Shown here: piece after piece, positions 1 through 8,974 of the stretch | Layout: each line of letters begins with the position of its first letter | Position numbering within the stretch: position 1 is the stretch's first letter | DNA from: Escherichia coli | Lineage (GTDB): Bacteria > Pseudomonadota > Gammaproteobacteria > Enterobacterales > Enterobacteriaceae | NCBI RefSeq assembly: GCF_003018235.1 | Contig: NZ_CP027437.1 | DNA: 64,000 nucleotides | Direction: 5' to 3' (one strand) | Notes under the pieces: generated by a model | Databases searched by the model: none | What the model saw: the letters and a program-made list of their open reading frames with translations, nothing else | What the model was told of the DNA's origin: nothing | Made by a program: the position numbers and the translations under genes

Positions 1-164
1 GTGCCGAAAAATATCTATTAACCGCCCCGTTTTGTTTTATACATGTCCGGACTACGGACAGATTTTAGTATTGTTGTGAAATTATTCTGCTTTATATTTA
101 CCCTCAGAGATGGCAACTGAAGCTCTTCCACATGGGGCTTCTTAATCTGTGATAAGGGTAAAAA

Positions 165-1718
165 ATGCAAATGATTACCTCGCGACAAAACAGATTATTA
201 CGATTCCTTTTACCACGAAGGGAATATACGACTATTGTTACGATTGCCGGCTATTTAAATGTTTCGGAAAAAACCATTCAACGTGATTTACGTTTACTTG
301 AGCAATGGCTGGAACAATGGCGAATAACCGTTGAGAAGCGTGCTGGCGCAGGTGTGATGTTAGACTCGAAGAATATTACTGATTTGCTGCATCTTGATCA
401 TTTGTTGGGAGCAGAATGTGAAGAGATTGATGGTGTAATGAATAATGCCAGGCGCGTTAAAATAGCGTCGCAGTTATTAAGTGAAACACCGAATGAAACG
501 TCGATCAGTAAATTGTCAGAGCGCTATTTTATCAGTGGAGCCTCTATTGTTAATGACCTGAGAGTGATTGAGTCCTGGCTTGCGCCGTTGGGGTTATCAT
601 TGATCCGCAGCCCAAGTGGTACGCATATTGAAGGTAGTGAAGGGCAAGTCCGACAGGCAATGGCATTACTGATTAACGGCATTATTAACCATAATGAGCC
701 GCAAGGTGTCGTGTATTCACGTCTGGATCCCGGAAGTTATAAAGCATTAGTCCATTATTTTGGAGAAGAAGAGGTGTTATTTGTCCAGTCATTGTTACTG
801 GATATGGAAAATGAATTAAGTTGGTCTTTGGGAGAGCCTTATTACGTTAACATTTTTACTCACATCCTTATTATGATGTATCGCAACACGCACGGGAATG
901 CGTTATCCAGAGAAGAAGATCAAACCAGGCAATATGATGAAAATATCTTTAATGTTGCCAGTCAGATGATTCATAAGATAGAACAACGAATTGCACATAC
1001 ATTGCCCGATGATGAAGTCTGGTTTATTTATCAATATATCATTTCATCAGGTGTGGCGATTGATGGACAAAAAGATGTTAGCATTATTTCACATATGCAG
1101 GCCAGCAATGAAGCGCGTCTGATTACCTGGCGTTTAATTACGGTATTCAGTGACATCGTGGACTGCGATTTTAGTGAAGACAGCGCATTATATGATGGCT
1201 TATTGGTGCATATTAAGCCGCTGATTAACCGACTAAATTATCGCATTCATATCCGTAATCCATTGCTGGAAGATATTAAAGCAGAATTAGCGGATGTCTG
1301 GCGGTTGACGCAATATGTGGTGAATCAGGTATTTAAAACCTGGGGTGAGAATGCAGTGAGCGAGGATGAAGTGGGTTACCTGACCGTTCATTTTCAGGCT
1401 GCGATGGAGCGGCAAATTGCCCGTAAACGCGTATTACTGGTCTGTTCAACCGGAATCGGAACTTCGCATCTACTGAAAAGCCGTATTCTGCGAGCGTTTC
1501 CTGAATGGACGATTGTTGATGTTATTTCAGCAGCGAATTTATCACAGGTTTTGCCTGACAATATCGAACTGATTATTTCGACCATTAATTTGCCTACAGT
1601 CACTATGCCGGTCGCTTATGTTACCGCTTTTTTTAATGATGCCGATATTAAGCGGGTCACTGAAATGGTGATTACGGAAAAATTACATCATGCGACATCT
1701 CGGGTCGTTGAAATTTAA
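165..1718 (+). CDS. PTS-operon transcriptional activator (Mga-type HTH, PRD domains, EIIB-like CSTGIGTS motif); regulator of frz-like operon
   Basis: 517-aa ORF; N-terminal HTH-like region (EKTIQRDLRLLEQWL), C-terminal LLVCSTGIGTSHLL typical of PTS-regulatory-domain activators; first gene of PTS operon. Confidence 0.8.
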   Translation: MQMITSRQNRLLRFLLPRREYTTIVTIAGYLNVSEKTIQRDLRLLEQWLEQWRITVEKRAGAGVMLDSKNITDLLHLDHLLGAECEEIDGVMNNARRVKIASQLLSETPNETSISKLSERYFISGASIVNDLRVIESWLAPLGLSLIRSPSGTHIEGSEGQVRQAMALLINGIINHNEPQGVVYSRLDPGSYKALVHYFGEEEVLFVQSLLLDMENELSWSLGEPYYVNIFTHILIMMYRNTHGNALSREEDQTRQYDENIFNVASQMIHKIEQRIAHTLPDDEVWFIYQYIISSGVAIDGQKDVSIISHMQASNEARLITWRLITVFSDIVDCDFSEDSALYDGLLVHIKPLINRLNYRIHIRNPLLEDIKAELADVWRLTQYVVNQVFKTWGENAVSEDEVGYLTVHFQAAMERQIARKRVLLVCSTGIGTSHLLKSRILRAFPEWTIVDVISAANLSQVLPDNIELIISTINLPTVTMPVAYVTAFFNDADIKRVTEMVITEKLHHATSRVVEI

Positions 1719-1744
1719 TGTCAGAATTTTATGAGGTATGACGA

Positions 1745-2215
1745 ATGGACATAACAAAAATCCTGAATACGAATCGCGTTATTTTAGATATGCAAGCGAC
1801 GAATAAAGCGGAGGCGATTGAAGAATTAACTAATCTTCTCAAAAAAGATGGTGCGATCGATTGTCGGGAAACCTTTATTAAAGATGTCTGGCAGCGCGAA
1901 GCGGAAGGCTCGACTGGTTTTGAAAATCATATTGCGATCCCGCATGGTAAATCTTCTGCGGTAATTAATACCACGCTGGCGATCGGGCGAACCCGGCAGG
2001 ATATTCCCTGGGAAACGCTGGATGGCAGTAGCGTGCGCTGTATTATTTTATTTGCGGTACGTCTTGAAGATCAAAATACCACCCATATCCGTTTACTTTC
2101 CCAGGTCGCGGGTGCGCTGGCGGATGATGACATCATAGAACAATTGCTGGTTGAGACGAGTCCGCAAAAAATCATTGATCTCTTTAGTCAGTATGCACAA
2201 TCCGATGTCTGCTAA
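1745..2215 (+). CDS. PTS EIIA component, fructose/mannitol (type-2) family
   Basis: 156 aa; conserved HIAIPHGK phosphorylation-site His motif; operon context. Confidence 0.8.
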   Translation: MDITKILNTNRVILDMQATNKAEAIEELTNLLKKDGAIDCRETFIKDVWQREAEGSTGFENHIAIPHGKSSAVINTTLAIGRTRQDIPWETLDGSSVRCIILFAVRLEDQNTTHIRLLSQVAGALADDDIIEQLLVETSPQKIIDLFSQYAQSDVC

Positions 2216-2232
2216 ATAACAGGGAGTATGTC

Positions 2233-2547
2233 ATGAATATTGTCTGTGTTGCCGCCTGCACGGCGGGTATTGCTCACACCTATATTGCTCGTGAAAAGTT
2301 AATTAAAGGGGCAAAAGCACTGGGCCACACCATTAAAGTTGAAACCCAGGGAACCATTGGTACAGAAAACGAATTACAGGCGGCAGAGATCTCTGCTGCT
2401 GACGTCGTGATTCTTGCTGTGGATGTGAAAATAAAAGGAGAAGAACGTTTTACCAATAAACGCATTGTGCGAGTAAAGACAGAGATCGTCATTAAATCGC
2501 CCGTTCAATTTCTTGAAAAGGTCGAAAAATCACTGGGAAATAAATGA
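2233..2547 (+). CDS. PTS EIIB component, fructose-type
   Basis: 104 aa; N-terminal CVAACTAGIAHTYIA Cys motif typical of fructose-family EIIB. Confidence 0.8.
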   Translation: MNIVCVAACTAGIAHTYIAREKLIKGAKALGHTIKVETQGTIGTENELQAAEISAADVVILAVDVKIKGEERFTNKRIVRVKTEIVIKSPVQFLEKVEKSLGNK

Positions 2548-2571
2548 TCCTTATACTGGAGGGATCTTAAT

Positions 2572-3663
2572 ATGAAAGAAAATAAAATTCCGGTTTCACA
2601 GGAAATTAAAAAACATTTATTAACCGGCATCTCGTGGATGATACCCCTTATTGTGGCCGCCGGGATATGTATTGCGTTGGGGCAAGTTCTTGGCGGTACA
2701 GATGTTGGTGAAAAAACAGGAACAATCCCGTGGATGCTTAATCAGATTGGCGGCTGGGGAATGGGGCTGATTGTGCCGCTGATTAGCGCGGCAATTGCCT
2801 ATTCTATTGCTGATCGTCCCGGTTTTGCCCCGGGCCTGATTGTCGGCTTTCTCTGTGGGCAAATCCATACCGGATTTATTGGCGGTATGTTGGGTGGTTT
2901 CCTGGTGGGCTACACCATTTTGCTACTTAAACGCTATATCCGCCTGCCGCAGTCGATGCAAGGACTCATGCCAATCATGGTGTTACCGGTATTGAGCACC
3001 ATTATCGGTGGGCTGTTAATGATGACGCTGATTGGTAAACCCATCGCCTGGTTACAAGAAGCACTGACTCATTTGCTCGAGTCGATGCAGGGCGGATCGC
3101 GCTTCCTGATGGGGGCCATACTTGGCGCGATGGCAACCTTCGATTTCGGTGGTCCGGTCAACAAAACCATGTCGCTGTTTTCCGATGGCTTGCTGGTCAG
3201 TGGCGTCTACGGACCAGAAGCCGTGAAATTTGTCGGCTCAATCATCCCTCCGTTTGGCATCACACTTTCGTTCTTACTGACACGCCATAAATACACCCGT
3301 GCGGAGCGCGAGGCGCTGAAAGCCGCGTTTCCGATGGGGATCTGCATGATCACTGAAGGAGTCATTCCGATCGCCGCGCGTGACCTGCTGCGAGTAGTGG
3401 GATCTTGTGTGGTGGCATCGGCGGTCGCGGGCGGCTTAATCATGGTGTGGGGCGTGGAGAGTCCGGTTCCGCATGGCGGCATGTTTGTTGTGCCTCTGTT
3501 CACCCATCCTCTGCTGTTTTGCCTGGCGCTGGGTATAGGCACGGTGATTTGTGGCGTGATGCTTTCACTCTGGAAGAAACCGGTAACGGAACGCGACGAA
3601 GAGTTTGACGAACTGAGCGATCAAAAGCTGAAAGATGAAGAGATCACTTTCACCCTCGAATAA
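2572..3663 (+). CDS. PTS EIIC permease, fructose-like family
   Basis: 363 aa, highly hydrophobic multi-TM protein; GGAGG SD upstream; follows EIIA/EIIB. Confidence 0.8.
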   Translation: MKENKIPVSQEIKKHLLTGISWMIPLIVAAGICIALGQVLGGTDVGEKTGTIPWMLNQIGGWGMGLIVPLISAAIAYSIADRPGFAPGLIVGFLCGQIHTGFIGGMLGGFLVGYTILLLKRYIRLPQSMQGLMPIMVLPVLSTIIGGLLMMTLIGKPIAWLQEALTHLLESMQGGSRFLMGAILGAMATFDFGGPVNKTMSLFSDGLLVSGVYGPEAVKFVGSIIPPFGITLSFLLTRHKYTRAEREALKAAFPMGICMITEGVIPIAARDLLRVVGSCVVASAVAGGLIMVWGVESPVPHGGMFVVPLFTHPLLFCLALGIGTVICGVMLSLWKKPVTERDEEFDELSDQKLKDEEITFTLE

Positions 3664-3674
3664 CCGGAGGCCCT

Positions 3675-4526
3675 ATGTTTGCCGATATGAAAAGTATGGT
3701 GATGAAAGCCTGGCATGAACATTACGCCTTGCTGGCGATCAACTGTATGAATCTGGAAAGTGCTCACGCAGCTATCCGCGTGGCGGAGAAGAATCGCGCT
3801 CCGATCATTCTCAATCTCTATCAGGGGCATCTGGCGCATTTTCCTGCACCCGTCGCGGCGGCAGTGGTTAAAACGCTCGCGGAATCTGCCTCAGTACCGG
3901 TCGCTCTGGCGCTTGATCATGGCAAAAATCCGGACTGTATTCGTCAGGCGTTTCGTGCTGGTTTCAGCGGATTAATGATTGATGCTTCTGCTTTTCCCCT
4001 GGAGGAAAACGTGCGCCAGACCAGGGCGGTGGTGGAACTCGCCGCCAGCGCGCAGCTCTGCGTGGAAGGCGAACTGGGCCATCTGGCAGATGCGCCGCGT
4101 TACGACCAGGCCGCCAATGCAGACCTGATGACGCAACCCACTGATGTGGAACCGTTTATCGCGCAGACAGGCATTGATCTACTGGCCGTCTCGGTAGGCA
4201 CGGCGCACGGCATGTACGCGCCTGGTGTTGTACCTGCTATTGATTTTCAGCGTCTGGCGGAGATTTTCCACTGCTCGAGCGTGCCTCTGGCATTACATGG
4301 CGGTAGCGGTACGCCGTTCGATCAGCTCCAGCTCTGTACGACGCTGGGGGTAGCAAAAATCAACGTGGGGGCGGCCATTTTTGAACGGGGGAAATCCGCG
4401 CTCCTGCATACCCTCTGTCACGATATATCCATTGAACTGGTGGACGCGCTGAAAGCTATGGAACTGGCCTTCGAAGAAGCGATTACACCGTATTTACAGG
4501 CGAGCGGCTCTATAGGCAAAGCCTGA
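3675..4526 (+). CDS. Class II ketose-1,6-bisphosphate aldolase (GatY/KbaY/FbaA family), copy 1
   Basis: 283 aa; LDHG, GTAHG and LHGGSG metal-binding motifs. Confidence 0.8.
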   Translation: MFADMKSMVMKAWHEHYALLAINCMNLESAHAAIRVAEKNRAPIILNLYQGHLAHFPAPVAAAVVKTLAESASVPVALALDHGKNPDCIRQAFRAGFSGLMIDASAFPLEENVRQTRAVVELAASAQLCVEGELGHLADAPRYDQAANADLMTQPTDVEPFIAQTGIDLLAVSVGTAHGMYAPGVVPAIDFQRLAEIFHCSSVPLALHGGSGTPFDQLQLCTTLGVAKINVGAAIFERGKSALLHTLCHDISIELVDALKAMELAFEEAITPYLQASGSIGKA

Positions 4527-4606
4527 TTCATTTTCTGTCATGGCCTTTATGCCAGTGCAATAACGCACCGGCAGGGCGGACTACACGCTGAAACTGGAGA
4601 TTTAAC

Positions 4607-5467
4607 ATGTTAGTTTCGATGAAAGAATTACTGCAACCTACCCGCCAGCACGGCTTTGCCATTGGCGCATTTAATGTGGCGGATAACTGTTTCCTTCGCG
4701 CAGTCGTGGATGAAGCAGAAGCGACAAATACTCCGGCGATTATTGCCATCCATCCCAGCGAACATGATTTTGTGGGCGATGCCTTTTTCGCTCACGTTCG
4801 CGAAATTACCCAGCGTAGTCCGGTCCCGTTTGTACTGCACCTCGATCATGGTGCCTCTGTAGAGCATGTTTTGCGTGCGATTCGCTGCGGATTTACCTCA
4901 GTAATGATCGACGGTTCGCTGCTGCCGTATGAAGAAAACGTGGCGCTGACCGCAGAAGTGGTTCGCCTCGCTCACGCGGTTGGAGTGTCGGTTGAGGGTG
5001 AACTGGGAACCATCGGACAAACAGGAACGTCGGTAGAAGGTGGTGTTTCACAAGTGACCTACACAGATCCGGCGCAGGCCGCCGATTTTATTGCTCGTAC
5101 AGGTGCCGACACTCTGGCTGTGGCGATTGGTACAGCGCATGGCATCTATCCAAAAGGGATGCAGCCGAAGCTGCAAATGGACATTTTGCGCGACATTGCC
5201 GGACGTATTGATATTCCGCTGGTGCTACACGGTGGTTCGGCAAACCCGGACGCGGAGATTGCTGAATCAGTTACGCTCGGCGTCGGCAAAATCAATATCT
5301 CCAGCGATATGAAATACGCCTATTTCCAGAAAGTGCGTGAAATTCTCGCTAAAGAGAGCTGGTGGGACCCGAACGTCATCTATCCGGATGCGATTAACGC
5401 GGCGCGGGAAGTCATTCGCCACAAAATGAAACTGTTCGGTTCGCTCGGTAAAGCATCACTGTACTAA
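4607..5467 (+). CDS. Class II ketose-1,6-bisphosphate aldolase, copy 2
   Basis: 286 aa; HLDHG, IGTAHG, LVLHGGS motifs; paralog of preceding gene. Confidence 0.8.
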   Translation: MLVSMKELLQPTRQHGFAIGAFNVADNCFLRAVVDEAEATNTPAIIAIHPSEHDFVGDAFFAHVREITQRSPVPFVLHLDHGASVEHVLRAIRCGFTSVMIDGSLLPYEENVALTAEVVRLAHAVGVSVEGELGTIGQTGTSVEGGVSQVTYTDPAQAADFIARTGADTLAVAIGTAHGIYPKGMQPKLQMDILRDIAGRIDIPLVLHGGSANPDAEIAESVTLGVGKINISSDMKYAYFQKVREILAKESWWDPNVIYPDAINAAREVIRHKMKLFGSLGKASLY

Positions 5468-5474
5468 GCCAGAA

Positions 5475-5495
5475 GGGCGGGGTGACCCGCCTTTT
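5475..5495 (+). terminator. GC-rich hairpin (GGCGGG-GTGA-CCCGCC) followed by TTTT between aldolase-2 and ROK kinase; possible intra-operon attenuator/partial terminator
   Basis: Inverted repeat read directly from sequence, T-run downstream. Confidence 0.35.
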
Positions 5496-5514
5496 ACGCA
5501 ACAAGGAACGAGAT

Positions 5515-6447
5515 ATGCACTATCTGGGGTTGGATATTGGTGGGACCAAAATCGCCGCCGTCGTCATGGATGCGCATGGCTGGGAGATTCGCCGTTACCG
5601 CTGCCCGACGCAAAAGTCGACATATCAACAATTTGTCTCATGCGTTGTGGCGTTTATCGAGCAGATTAGGCGGGACGTTCAACGACCGATGCTGACAGGG
5701 ATCGCCTTACCCGGCAGTATCTCGCCACTCACTGGCCTGATTAAAAACGCGAATATTCAGGTGATTAACGGTCATGCGTTACAGGCTGATTTGCAGCAAT
5801 TGCTTGGGCAACCGGTGGTGATAGCCAATGATGGTAACTGTTTCGCGCTATCAGAAGCTTGCGACGGTGCCGGGCAAGATTATGACGTGGTATTTGGTAT
5901 TACGCTTGGTACGGGCTGCGGCGGTGGCATTGCCATCAAGCAACGACCGTTTATAGGGGCCTGGGGAAATGCTGCCGAATGCGGTCATATCACGTTGCCA
6001 AGCTATACGGAGCAGGAAGATGGTCCATCAGTCAGTTGCTATTGCGGCAAACACAACTGCGTGGAGTCGTTTGTTTCCGGCAGCGGTTTTAGTGAACGCT
6101 ATCAACAGATGACTGCTAACTTGCTCACTCCTGCGGCGATTGTCACCCTGGCACAACGTGGTGATGCTTGTGCCATGCAGCAGGTGGCACGTTTTCGCCA
6201 ACAGCTTGCCCGCACGCTGGCAACCATCGTTAACGTTGTTGACCCTGGCGTGATTGTGATTGGCGGCGGGCTTTCGAATGTGGAACTGCTTATCACCGAT
6301 CTGAACGCAGAAGTCGCTCCACTGGTTTTCACCGACCAATTCACCACCCCCATTGTAAAAGCGCAGCACGGCGACAGTAGCGGAATGCGTGGCGCTGCCT
6401 GGCTTGCTATGCGCAACGGAGAAGCCAATGAAACGTTCACAAATTAA
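5515..6447 (+). CDS. ROK-family sugar kinase
   Basis: Start trimmed to MHYLGLDIGGTKIA (AAGGAA SD upstream); ROK glycine-rich ATP motif and Cys-rich zinc motif (CYCGKHNC). Confidence 0.8.
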   Translation: MHYLGLDIGGTKIAAVVMDAHGWEIRRYRCPTQKSTYQQFVSCVVAFIEQIRRDVQRPMLTGIALPGSISPLTGLIKNANIQVINGHALQADLQQLLGQPVVIANDGNCFALSEACDGAGQDYDVVFGITLGTGCGGGIAIKQRPFIGAWGNAAECGHITLPSYTEQEDGPSVSCYCGKHNCVESFVSGSGFSERYQQMTANLLTPAAIVTLAQRGDACAMQQVARFRQQLARTLATIVNVVDPGVIVIGGGLSNVELLITDLNAEVAPLVFTDQFTTPIVKAQHGDSSGMRGAAWLAMRNGEANETFTN

Positions 6448-7108
6448 TTATGTTATTGATAAAGCACATGCCATTGCGCAGACCTTCCGCGTTTGTTTGC
6501 CAGAGTTCGCCTATTTTACGGTGGATGACTGGCTGCAGCGGGAACGGGATAACTGGCAAGAAGTGGTCGACTTACAGCTCGGTTGGGATATCACCGATTT
6601 TGGTCGTGGTGATTTCAACCAAACGGGACTAACACTGCTAACGATGCGCAACGGCGCGCTGGGGGCGGCGGCATATCCAAAACCGTATGCTGAGAAAATG
6701 TTGCAGATCCAACAAGATCAGCAGACTCCCTGGCATTTTCACACCCACAAAATGGAAGATATCCTCAATCGGGGCGGTGGAGACTTATGCATGCAGTTGG
6801 CCTGGGCCAACGAAGCCAATCTCTGTGATGATCAACGAGTCATTACCGTGAGTGTTGATGGTCAGCGGCGTACCATGAAACCTGGTGAAACGCTGGTGCT
6901 AAAGCCGGGGCAGGGCATTTGCCTGCCGCCGCGTCTGTATCATCGCTTCTGGGCGGAAAAAGCGTTTGTTCTCGGCTGGGAAATTTCGATGGTAAATGAT
7001 GACCAACACGATAACTATTTTCTTGAGCCGGGAGGACGTTTTCCGGCGATAGAAGAAGATGAACCGGTGAAATGGTTATTGTGCAGTGAGTATGGAATTT
7101 TGCGCTAA
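6428..7108 (+). CDS. Cupin-superfamily protein (D-lyxose/sugar isomerase-like)
   Basis: Start chosen at MKRSQINYV (overlaps ROK stop by 20 nt); HFHTHK cupin metal motif; last gene of frz-like operon. Confidence 0.7.
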   Translation: MKRSQINYVIDKAHAIAQTFRVCLPEFAYFTVDDWLQRERDNWQEVVDLQLGWDITDFGRGDFNQTGLTLLTMRNGALGAAAYPKPYAEKMLQIQQDQQTPWHFHTHKMEDILNRGGGDLCMQLAWANEANLCDDQRVITVSVDGQRRTMKPGETLVLKPGQGICLPPRLYHRFWAEKAFVLGWEISMVNDDQHDNYFLEPGGRFPAIEEDEPVKWLLCSEYGILR

Positions 7109-7117
7109 TAACGGGGA

Positions 7118-7143
7118 ACGCTAGCGCTGATATCCGCTAGCGT
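7118..7143. terminator. Bidirectional hairpin terminator between convergent frz-like operon and yicH
   Basis: Perfect 9-bp inverted repeat ACGCTAGCG / CGCTAGCGT with 8-nt loop, followed by T-rich tract. Confidence 0.45.
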
Positions 7144-7151
7144 CCTTATTT

Positions 7152-8861
7152 TTACTGCACCGGCTCCGTCGACGTAACTTCACCACTGGAAACTACGCCC
7201 GCATTCATGGTTTGAGTCACTTGCTGCTTTGCGGCATTCACGGCATGCAATTGCCCGCTAACCGTAGGTTTCAGCGGGACATTGGCCTGAATATCGCCAC
7301 TGGCAGTAAGCTGAATATTGCCGTCGCCAGTCAACGGTAATTCAGGCCATCCCCACTGTTGCAAAATATTCACCGGCACACCGCGTCCATTCAGGCTGAT
7401 ATGGGTCTGACGTTGTGGCGTTTGTGAAACACTGGCGGTGGCTTCCAGAATGCCTTTTTCAGTAAATGCACTCAGTTCGCTGATATTCACCGTGCTGCTG
7501 TTGGCGGTCAGCGCCAGCGATGGGCGACGAACATCAACACGATTGAATGTCGCGGCGGCGGCATTCAGATTCGCCGAACCACTCCAGACGCCCCATTTAT
7601 GATCGGTAACCAGCGTCAGGTTGGTACCGTAACCATCGAGCGCGGTGAGCTGCCACGGGAAGTCAGGGTCGATATCAATGATCAGATTGCGGCTGGCGCT
7701 AAATCTCTTCAGTTGCAGGCTGTTTAACCAACCGGGTGTCGTTTCCATCCACAACTGTTGCCAGTTTTTTGGCAAGGTATATTCCAGTCCGGCAATTGCC
7801 GCATCATCAAGGAGCAACGTTTTCCCGTTGCGCAGCCAGTTCCCGGACGTTCTGACCATGCCCCCTTCCCAGCGGCTGGTGAACTGGCGCAGCGCTACGC
7901 CCTGCGGGGAAAATTCCGCGTTTATAATCGGGTCAAATAAATGCAGCGAACCATAAATGAACTCGCTGGCGTTCATCGACAGTTTGCCTTCCTGTGTCTG
8001 CCAGTCATCTTTACTGAAGGTCATGTTGCGCAAGCTGAGATCGAGGTCGGTCACCGCCCAGTCCGGACCTTGCAGGCGAGCGTCGATGACTTCCAGGCGA
8101 CCGATCTGCAACGACGGGACAGAGCGTAATGGCGCAAAGAAGTCAGTTAGCGATTTTTCGCTTTGTAGACGGATATCCGCCAGCCGCAGATTTTCCACTT
8201 GCCAGCTGCCGTCGGCGTTACGCTGCGCGTTTCCGGTTAATGTCCCGCGGGCGATGTCGGCACCCAGGTTAGTCAGCGTAACGCGATCGTTATCAATACT
8301 GCCTTCAATCAGTACATTGGTGGCAGGAACATCATTGAGAGAAAGCGATCCGGCACTAAACTGAATCTGCGCCTTCGTACCCAGCACTTTACCGGCTTCT
8401 GGTGACCACGGAACCACGCCACCATTTACCCGCTGCGCGCTCAGTTTCCATTCGCTATTCGGGCTATTAAACGCCATATCACGCAGTTGCAGACGATCGG
8501 CTTTGAACGGTAGCGGCGCGGTCTGGTCGGTGAGATTCAGCGTCCCGTTTTCCAGCAGGATGGTATCGACATGGCGTGGTTCGGTCAGTTGCCGACTGCT
8601 TAGCGCAATGTCGACACTTTTTGCCACCAGGGTCGCGGGCTGGCCATCACGGCCGAACGTGACGTTCTCCAGCACGATATGAGATGGCGCGGAAAAACGG
8701 TGATCCATCGCCCCGAAGGCCAGATGATAGTCGCTATTCTCGGAAACCCATGCGCTGATATGTTCTGCTCCCCAGCGGGTTTGCAGAAGAAAATAGAGGC
8801 CAGCGATCACCACTAACAGAGCGATGAAAATGTAGAGAAGCAGCTTCCCAATAAATTTCAT
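7152..8861 (-). CDS. yicH: AsmA-family outer-membrane biogenesis protein YicH
   Basis: 569 aa after trimming to MKFIGKLLLYI; N-terminal TM segment; synteny next to xanP. Confidence 0.85.
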   Translation of the reverse strand: MKFIGKLLLYIFIALLVVIAGLYFLLQTRWGAEHISAWVSENSDYHLAFGAMDHRFSAPSHIVLENVTFGRDGQPATLVAKSVDIALSSRQLTEPRHVDTILLENGTLNLTDQTAPLPFKADRLQLRDMAFNSPNSEWKLSAQRVNGGVVPWSPEAGKVLGTKAQIQFSAGSLSLNDVPATNVLIEGSIDNDRVTLTNLGADIARGTLTGNAQRNADGSWQVENLRLADIRLQSEKSLTDFFAPLRSVPSLQIGRLEVIDARLQGPDWAVTDLDLSLRNMTFSKDDWQTQEGKLSMNASEFIYGSLHLFDPIINAEFSPQGVALRQFTSRWEGGMVRTSGNWLRNGKTLLLDDAAIAGLEYTLPKNWQQLWMETTPGWLNSLQLKRFSASRNLIIDIDPDFPWQLTALDGYGTNLTLVTDHKWGVWSGSANLNAAAATFNRVDVRRPSLALTANSSTVNISELSAFTEKGILEATASVSQTPQRQTHISLNGRGVPVNILQQWGWPELPLTGDGNIQLTASGDIQANVPLKPTVSGQLHAVNAAKQQVTQTMNAGVVSSGEVTSTEPVQ

Positions 8862-8949: not shown

Positions 8950-8974
8950 GCGGCGGTAATTATCTTACCGCCGC
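8950..8974. repeat. Perfect 10-bp inverted repeat (GCGGCGGTAA / TTACCGCCGC) downstream of xanP; REP-like or terminator stem
   Basis: Read from sequence; no clean U-tract on xanP strand. Confidence 0.35.

Follow-up and report, generated by a model that had tools for sequence, protein, structure and literature searches.

A probable Rho-independent terminator of the Escherichia coli frz operon stands beside the edge of a segment more likely lost than inserted

The stretch analysed here (the window, 64,000 nucleotides of E. coli DNA) opens with an eight-gene operon of the frz type that converges on yicH, a gene for an AsmA-family protein (Table 1). Past yicH on the minus-strand side lie xanP and then gltS. 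Gene assignments rest on NCBIfam matches and on the RefSeq annotation of E. coli strain 7/2, which is 99.6% identical to the window over the junction and in whose locus (L002) coordinates equal window coordinates plus 3401. Both sources agree with the original prediction, made from the sequence alone, that a frz-like operon and yicH flank the junction. It corresponds to the operon known as frz in extraintestinal pathogenic E. coli (ExPEC). In strain BEN2908 it is known as genomic region GR27, which lies between yicH and yicI and measures 7,227 bp (PMC12928451), compared with ∼7.23 kb here. Its genes and chromosomal position are those given for GR27 of ExPEC (Rouquet et al. 2009, as cited in PMC12928451). 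The region upstream of the operon (window 1-164; L002 3370-3410), which may be its control region, is conserved with Citrobacter (L042); it contains the inverted repeat GATCAC-N19-GTGATC, which has a CRP-like half-site, TGTGA. A perfect 10-bp hairpin, GCGGCGGTAA-TTATC-TTACCGCCGC, occupies window 8950-8974. It falls between the stop of xanP and the start of yicH on the minus strand, and no T-tract follows its stem on that strand.

Table 1. Features of the frz operon, of its junction with yicH and of the edges of the variable segment (window coordinates).
Feature	Position	Strand	Remarks
frz-type operon, eight genes	165..7108	+	NCBIfam matches and RefSeq annotation of strain 7/2
BglG/Mga-type PRD regulator	165-1718	+	
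Fructose-type PTS EIIA	1745-2215	+	
Fructose-type PTS EIIB	2233-2547	+	
Fructose-type PTS EIIC	2572-3663	+	
Class II ketose-bisphosphate aldolase (first)	3675-4526	+	
Class II ketose-bisphosphate aldolase (second)	4607-5467	+	
ROK kinase	5515-6447	+	
D-lyxose/D-mannose isomerase-family cupin	6428-7108	+	
Intergenic spacer, convergent cupin gene/yicH	7109..7151	.	43 bp, TAACGGGGAACGCTAGCGCTGATATCCGCTAGCGTCCTTATTT
Predicted terminator hairpin	7115..7145	+	stem GG(A)ACGCTAGCG / CGCTAGCGTCC; core arms 7118-7126 and 7135-7143
Hairpin loop	7127-7134	+	8 nt, CTGATATC
T-tract	7146..7154	+	TTATTTTTA; final three bases complementary to the yicH stop
Right boundary of the frz segment	7147..7148	.	shared sequence from 7148 (ATTTTTAC...)
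yicH, AsmA-family protein	7152..8861	-	convergent with the frz operon
Left boundary of the frz segment	∼84 bp before window start (L002 3316/3317)	.	directly after the yicI hairpin

The spacer between the cupin gene and yicH is limited by the TAA stop (7106-7108) of the plus-strand ORF (6389/6428-7108) and by the TTA at 7152-7154, the complement of the stop of the minus-strand ORF. With stop codons at both edges, the gap measures the 43 bp originally given for it. The perfect 9-bp inverted repeat and the AT-rich tail also described there are both present: a repeat search returned two 9-nt arms that are 100% complementary and 8 nt apart, and the tract that follows, TTATTTTTA, is rich in T. Folding lengthens the stem by GG/CC over one bulged A to a total of 11 pairs, and the extended hairpin occupies 31 of the 43 bases of the gap. 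Inside each arm lies the self-complementary octamer CGCTAGCG, so that the arms also form a direct repeat. This octamer is rare, with three occurrences in 64 kb, two of them in the hairpin. The tetramer CTAG is strongly avoided in the same 64 kb (14 occurrences), and two of the 14 are in the hairpin (7118-7143).

The palindrome is real and non-random. A 61-nt stretch has a minimum free energy of −23.9 kcal/mol on the plus strand (z −4.2) and of −26.7 kcal/mol on the minus strand (z −5.5), and none of 200 dinucleotide shuffles folded as well on either strand. When distinct perfect hairpins with arms of 9 bp or more and a loop of 3-10 nt are counted over the whole window, there are 10, as compared to 1.9 ± 1.3 (maximum 5) in 100 first-order Markov simulations, an enrichment of the kind expected for terminators. 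By our own arithmetic, the probability that chance would place one such hairpin in a given 43-bp gap is about 1e-3.

The two strands of the hairpin differ in what follows the stem. A terminator scan called the plus strand (nine pairs, six of them G:C, an 8-nt loop and the tail CCTTATTTTT) and made no call on the minus strand at the hairpin. After the extended stem the plus-strand tail reads UUAUUUUUA, in which 7 of 9 positions are U; on the yicH side the stem is followed by CCCGUUAUUA, a poor U-tract. The T-tail score of d'Aubenton-Carafa type was 3.59 on the plus strand versus 1.87 on the minus strand, and the plus-strand value was the highest among all hairpins compared at the locus in any species. 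The combined discriminant was about 0 on the plus strand; calculated with ViennaRNA energies it is uncalibrated for modern energies and serves only to rank strands and alleles. An Rfam scan of positions 6800-7500 (E ≤ 10) returned nothing at the hairpin. The plus strand thus has a G+C-rich stem, a short loop, an adjacent U-tract and a position after the last gene, the attributes of a Rho-independent terminator, and the minus strand does not have the U-tract. The likeness to enterobacterial intrinsic terminators extends to a stem of 9-11 pairs, a loop of 8 nt, an immediate U-rich tract and a stem that starts 7-9 nt past the stop of the eighth and last co-directional frz gene. Unlike in typical intrinsic terminators, the loop is at the top of the 3-8 nt range of the scan, each arm is itself a palindrome, and the U-tract is broken by an A, overlaps the stop codon of the convergent gene and is weaker in two of three alleles.

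A 1,101-nt query that spans the junction was compared with 5,426 complete E. coli genomes; it matched 5,424 of them, with full coverage in 1,605. In the frz-negative genomes sampled the match begins at query position 549 or 552, which corresponds to window position 7148 or 7151; the start at 7151 is that of megablast in K-12-type genomes, which have GATGTTTAC. When the K-12 junction was used as the reciprocal query it was contiguous in 3,818 genomes and split into a yicI part and a yicH part in the frz-positive genomes. A 91-nt query centred on the palindrome (blastn, word size 11) matched the 1,605 frz-positive genomes only, once in each, and the palindrome is absent from all 3,818 empty-site genomes.

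The empty site has one uniform architecture in the 3,818 genomes. Read from five diverse E. coli genomes and E. fergusonii, it runs from the yicI stop through TCTATTGATGGAATG, the hairpin CCGGGTACG TCTGAGT CGTACCCGG and CGAGATTGAT(G/T)T to the TTA of the yicH stop. At the left end of frz-positive loci the yicI-proximal hairpin is kept as CCGGATACG-N13-CGTATCCGG and is followed by TAAATAATCTCAC...; it differs from its empty-site counterpart by one base per arm (G/C to A/T), with complementarity kept. The variable segment therefore extends from the end of the yicI hairpin to window position 7147, ∼7.23 kb that stand in place of CGAGATTG. The palindrome is on the variable side, its extended stem ends 2-3 nt from the right boundary, and half of the T-tract (ATTTTTA) is common to empty-site genomes. 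The original prediction had put an accessory/core junction at this gap and had proposed an alignment with operon-less strains as the check. That alignment upholds it: homology resumes at 7148, just past the stem, and the palindrome is missing from every empty site. The left edge of the segment, TAAATAATCTC, resembles by eye the reverse complement of the empty-site tail (TAAAAATCAATCTC), a likeness too short and AT-rich for interpretation, and the empty-site filler CGAGATTGAT has no copy within the frz segment.

The hairpin varies among frz-positive genomes. The 91-nt query matched 1,207 of the 1,605 at an identity of at least 99% and 151 at 95-99%; ST648 belongs to the latter group, with the spacer itself unchanged. 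A diverged allele with 83.5% identity, GGGGACGCTAACGTTGATATCCGTTAGCGCCCGCGTATTTAC, was found in 247 genomes (APEC O2-211 type). Stem pair 7, G:C in the window type, is A:U in two others, the APEC O2-211 type and that of the cryptic Escherichia sp. MOD1-EC7003. In these other two alleles the stem base becomes GGG/CCC with the bulged A kept, and is re-registered and not lost; all three haplotypes fold into the same hairpin. In place of the octamer these two have CGCTAACG and CGTTAGCG: arm-to-arm pairing is kept while the octamer palindromes and both CTAGs are gone, an outcome that points to a stem and not to a pair of protein half-sites. Both carry CTAACG/CGTTAG, and it is the compensatory G:C pair of the window type that creates both CTAGs. 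In a covariation analysis, limited to three distinct sequences, 91.7% of cells were paired and there was one compensatory pair, a score reached by 165 of 500 shuffles. The T-tracts of the other two alleles, GCGTATTTAC and TAATTTTTAC, are weaker (T scores 2.3 and 2.1), so conserved efficient intrinsic termination is not obvious. In E. coli AREA_502 (L043 5292-5989) an IS1 insertion separates the end of the cupin gene from the hairpin, and both the hairpin and yicH are intact.

The same operon is found at the same place in other genera. With each species represented by one genome, a search for relatives of the cupin protein yielded 30 loci. The order yicJ-yicI-frz-yicH-xanP-gltS occurs in a cryptic Escherichia species, about ten species of the Citrobacter freundii complex, Phytobacter ursingii and two Superficieibacter, and yicH also follows the operon in further Phytobacter and Kosakonia loci. 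Nucleotide identity to E. coli in the other genera is 72-85% for the frz genes and 70-85% for yicI, yicH, xanP and gltS; in the cryptic Escherichia species the corresponding values are 92-97% and 95-98%. Gene by gene, the frz haplotypes of E. coli are 0-4.4% apart, comparable to the 0.7-3% of the flanks; this and the uniform empty site accord with loss. The frz region has been described as a genomic region specific to certain strains (PMC12928451); unlike in that description, the operon is found here at one and the same locus across genera, about as diverged as its flanks. Because it is syntenic and co-diverged with its flanks there, the E. coli frz "island" is, to judge from sequence comparison, more likely a long-established locus that was deleted from most E. 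coli than an insertion. The original view of the operon as an island is not supported, as Citrobacter, Phytobacter and Superficieibacter have it at the same yicI-yicH site. That the event was a loss and not a gain is inferred, and the 8 nt CGAGATTG at the empty site are not explained by a clean deletion and count against it.

Also in line with loss, an independent deletion is seen at this locus in Citrobacter sp. Cu233 (L032 9861-10260), where the 5' end of yicJ is fused to the last ∼85 codons of the cupin gene. This deletion removes yicI and most of the frz operon and leaves a yicJ remnant that corresponds to MFS_2 positions 5-76; a phage-type integrase gene lies just upstream. E. fergusonii shares the empty allele by way of an E. 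coli-like yicJI segment. In E. fergusonii GCA_020861595.1 (L039), yicJ-yicI and the empty intergenic region match K-12 (L001 1-6200) at 97-99% identity, above xanP at 93% and gltS at 94%, and yicH, at ∼76%, is as far from E. coli as that of Citrobacter. The mosaic break falls within ∼300 nt of the convergent junction. The 97-99% identity of yicJI and the junction indicates recent exchange with E. coli, which rules out E. fergusonii as an independent outgroup for the empty state.

Outside Escherichia the gap between the cupin gene and yicH holds other hairpins. In Citrobacter it contains a REP-like hairpin, GCCCGGT-N12-ACCGGGC. Citrobacter L152 has the same stem as L042 and L008 with the 12-nt loop reverse-complemented (AAGCGAAGCGCC vs GGCGCTTCGCTT), a difference that reads as a flip of the loop between the inverted arms. 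Phytobacter and Superficieibacter have longer, repeat-rich spacers. In an enterobacterial contig (L153 1779-1784, Logan SRR31919996) the gap is down to 4 nt, and the stem-loop there, CCGGTTA/TAACCGG, extends over the 3' coding end of yicH and is not in the spacer. A stem-loop is always present at the cupin/yicH junction while its sequence turns over, and the hairpins outside Escherichia are unrelated to the E. coli palindrome. Different hairpins in the same gap fit a requirement for some stem-loop there.

The C. amalonaticus group (L040, L041 and L154) has a 5-kb cassette between yicH and yicI that encodes a PTS EIICB, a GH4 glycosidase, an RpiR/SIS regulator and an MFS transporter. As this cassette is unrelated to frz, the yicI/yicH gap holds alternative cargos across species, and three states are found there: frz, the C. 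amalonaticus cassette and empty. A hairpin lies 10 nt past yicH in C. amalonaticus. The one in L040 has 14 of 15 nt (GATATCCGNTAGCGT) in common with the E. coli palindrome, with a similarity score of 25 that at most ∼1 in 1,000 shuffles reached; the one in L154, beside the same cargo, scored 14, reached by 55% of shuffles, which is chance level. With significance in L040 and chance level in L154, we do not claim homology between the palindrome and these yicH-proximal hairpins. A CGCT...GATATCCG...AGCG hairpin may be an old yicH-side element.

The palindrome is most probably a Rho-independent terminator of the frz operon, retained beside the endpoint of a single old deletion, and several other readings were weighed against this. 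The original prediction had taken it as probably a bidirectional terminator. In this reading one symmetric hairpin would serve both frz and yicH, either as an intrinsic terminator both ways or by hairpin plus collision. The stem is a perfect palindrome that folds on both strands and slightly better on the minus strand, it is the sole stem-loop of the gap with no other hairpin past the yicH stop, and frz-positive strains keep the hairpin that follows yicH at the empty site 7.2 kb away, beside yicI. Collision-assisted bidirectional termination of convergent genes is on record in E. coli (Ju et al. 2019, in the account of bioRxiv 10.1101/2022.10.23.513370), and the junction resembles the terminators of that account in its single stem-loop, its very short convergent gap and its foldability on both strands. 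It differs from them in that one side looks canonically intrinsic and the other does not. On the yicH strand, however, the stem is followed by CCCGUUAUUA, with the low T-tail score noted above, and the terminator scan left that strand uncalled. The plus-strand half of the original claim is supported by the anatomy of an intrinsic terminator and the minus-strand half is not, as a U-tract directly follows the stem on the plus strand only. Bidirectional function is possible and unsupported by the tail sequence; we take it seriously without favouring it.

The palindrome stands no more than 2-3 nt from the edge of the variable segment and is absent from empty-site genomes, which would also suit an att-, dif- or attC-like recombination site at which a mobile frz island integrated, the palindrome being its scar or target. 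However, the segment and its immediate surroundings contain no integrase, transposase or tRNA, and there are no tRNAs in 21 kb. The longest word common to the two ends is 7 nt in direct and 6 nt in inverted orientation, typical of shuffled sequence, and neither the left end nor the empty sites have a copy of the palindrome. The G+C content is 40-43% over the regulator/EIIA/EIIB part only and a flank-like 52-55% elsewhere, so that the right end equals its flank, and in other genera the operon is syntenic and equally diverged. The marks of a genomic island, namely an integrase or att site, end repeats, and foreign composition with absence from related taxa, were all lacking at the frz locus. The palindrome is thus at the boundary, as originally proposed, but the recombination mechanism attached to it finds no integrase, tRNA or shared end repeat beyond chance; this reading is already largely refuted and we regard it as very improbable. 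A dispersed palindromic repeat of REP/BIME or MITE type is brought to mind by the REP-like hairpin at exactly this position in Citrobacter, with its loop inverted between strains, and REP elements do occur in the 3' UTRs of convergent genes. Unlike these, the E. coli palindrome lacks the REP consensus and is single-copy, present once in each of 1,605 genomes and missing from the others, instead of the many copies per genome of REP/BIME elements, and it has no Rfam match. A metagenome contig scan with the pattern ACGCT-N4-14-GATATCCGNTAGCG matched 107 stretches, 7 of which are the E. coli frz-yicH junction and the rest chance matches without flank homology; it yielded no new contexts or variants, leaving frz-yicH as the only context. 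We consider a dispersed repeat extremely unlikely. Hardly more credible is an operator at which a dimeric or tetrameric regulator would bind two CGCTAGCG palindromes 16 bp apart at the DNA level. The two octamers are identical, self-complementary and rare, and CTAG is avoided in the window, but the octamer is not conserved among alleles while arm complementarity, the signature of an RNA or DNA stem, is kept, and the site lies where two genes end and no promoter is predicted. Finally, the gap hairpins could be more than terminators and act as preferred endpoints of cargo turnover at a sugar-utilisation hotspot, which we think rather unlikely. The edges of the variable segment, directly after the yicI hairpin and 2-3 nt past the frz/yicH hairpin, would suit it, and the 14 of 15 nt in common with L040 would make the palindrome an old yicH-side element kept through a cargo swap. 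If so, the breakpoints would be set by hairpin-induced breaks or template switching, events of the kind that the flipped loop in Citrobacter suggests.

In the terminator reading, once RNA polymerase passes the cupin stop, the nascent RNA would fold into the 11-pair G+C-rich stem with its 8-nt loop. The UUAUUUUUA transcribed next would weaken the RNA-DNA hybrid and the transcript would be released at about 7150-7155. Termination is predicted from this anatomy. The release point would lie on top of the convergent yicH stop and would keep frz transcription out of antisense yicH. The yicH transcript would meet the same hairpin 6 nt past its stop; because no U-tract adjoins the stem on that side, it would probably be only a weak or collision-assisted stop or a stem-loop that protects the 3' end. 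In E. coli a single old deletion would have removed ∼7.23 kb, from after the yicI hairpin to before ATTTTTAC, leaving CGAGATTG, and the deletion allele would later have spread by ordinary homologous recombination in the flanks. The palindrome would then be a retained operon terminator beside the deletion endpoint and not the cause of the event.

Taken alone the palindrome matters little, as it would add another intrinsic terminator, at the end of an accessory operon already known. The boundaries of frz presence and absence are now fixed to the base, which is useful for PCR typing of this ExPEC-virulence-associated marker. The patchy distribution of frz (1,605 of 5,426 complete genomes) would be read as loss and not as acquisition, and that reading would change how the association of frz with virulent lineages is interpreted.
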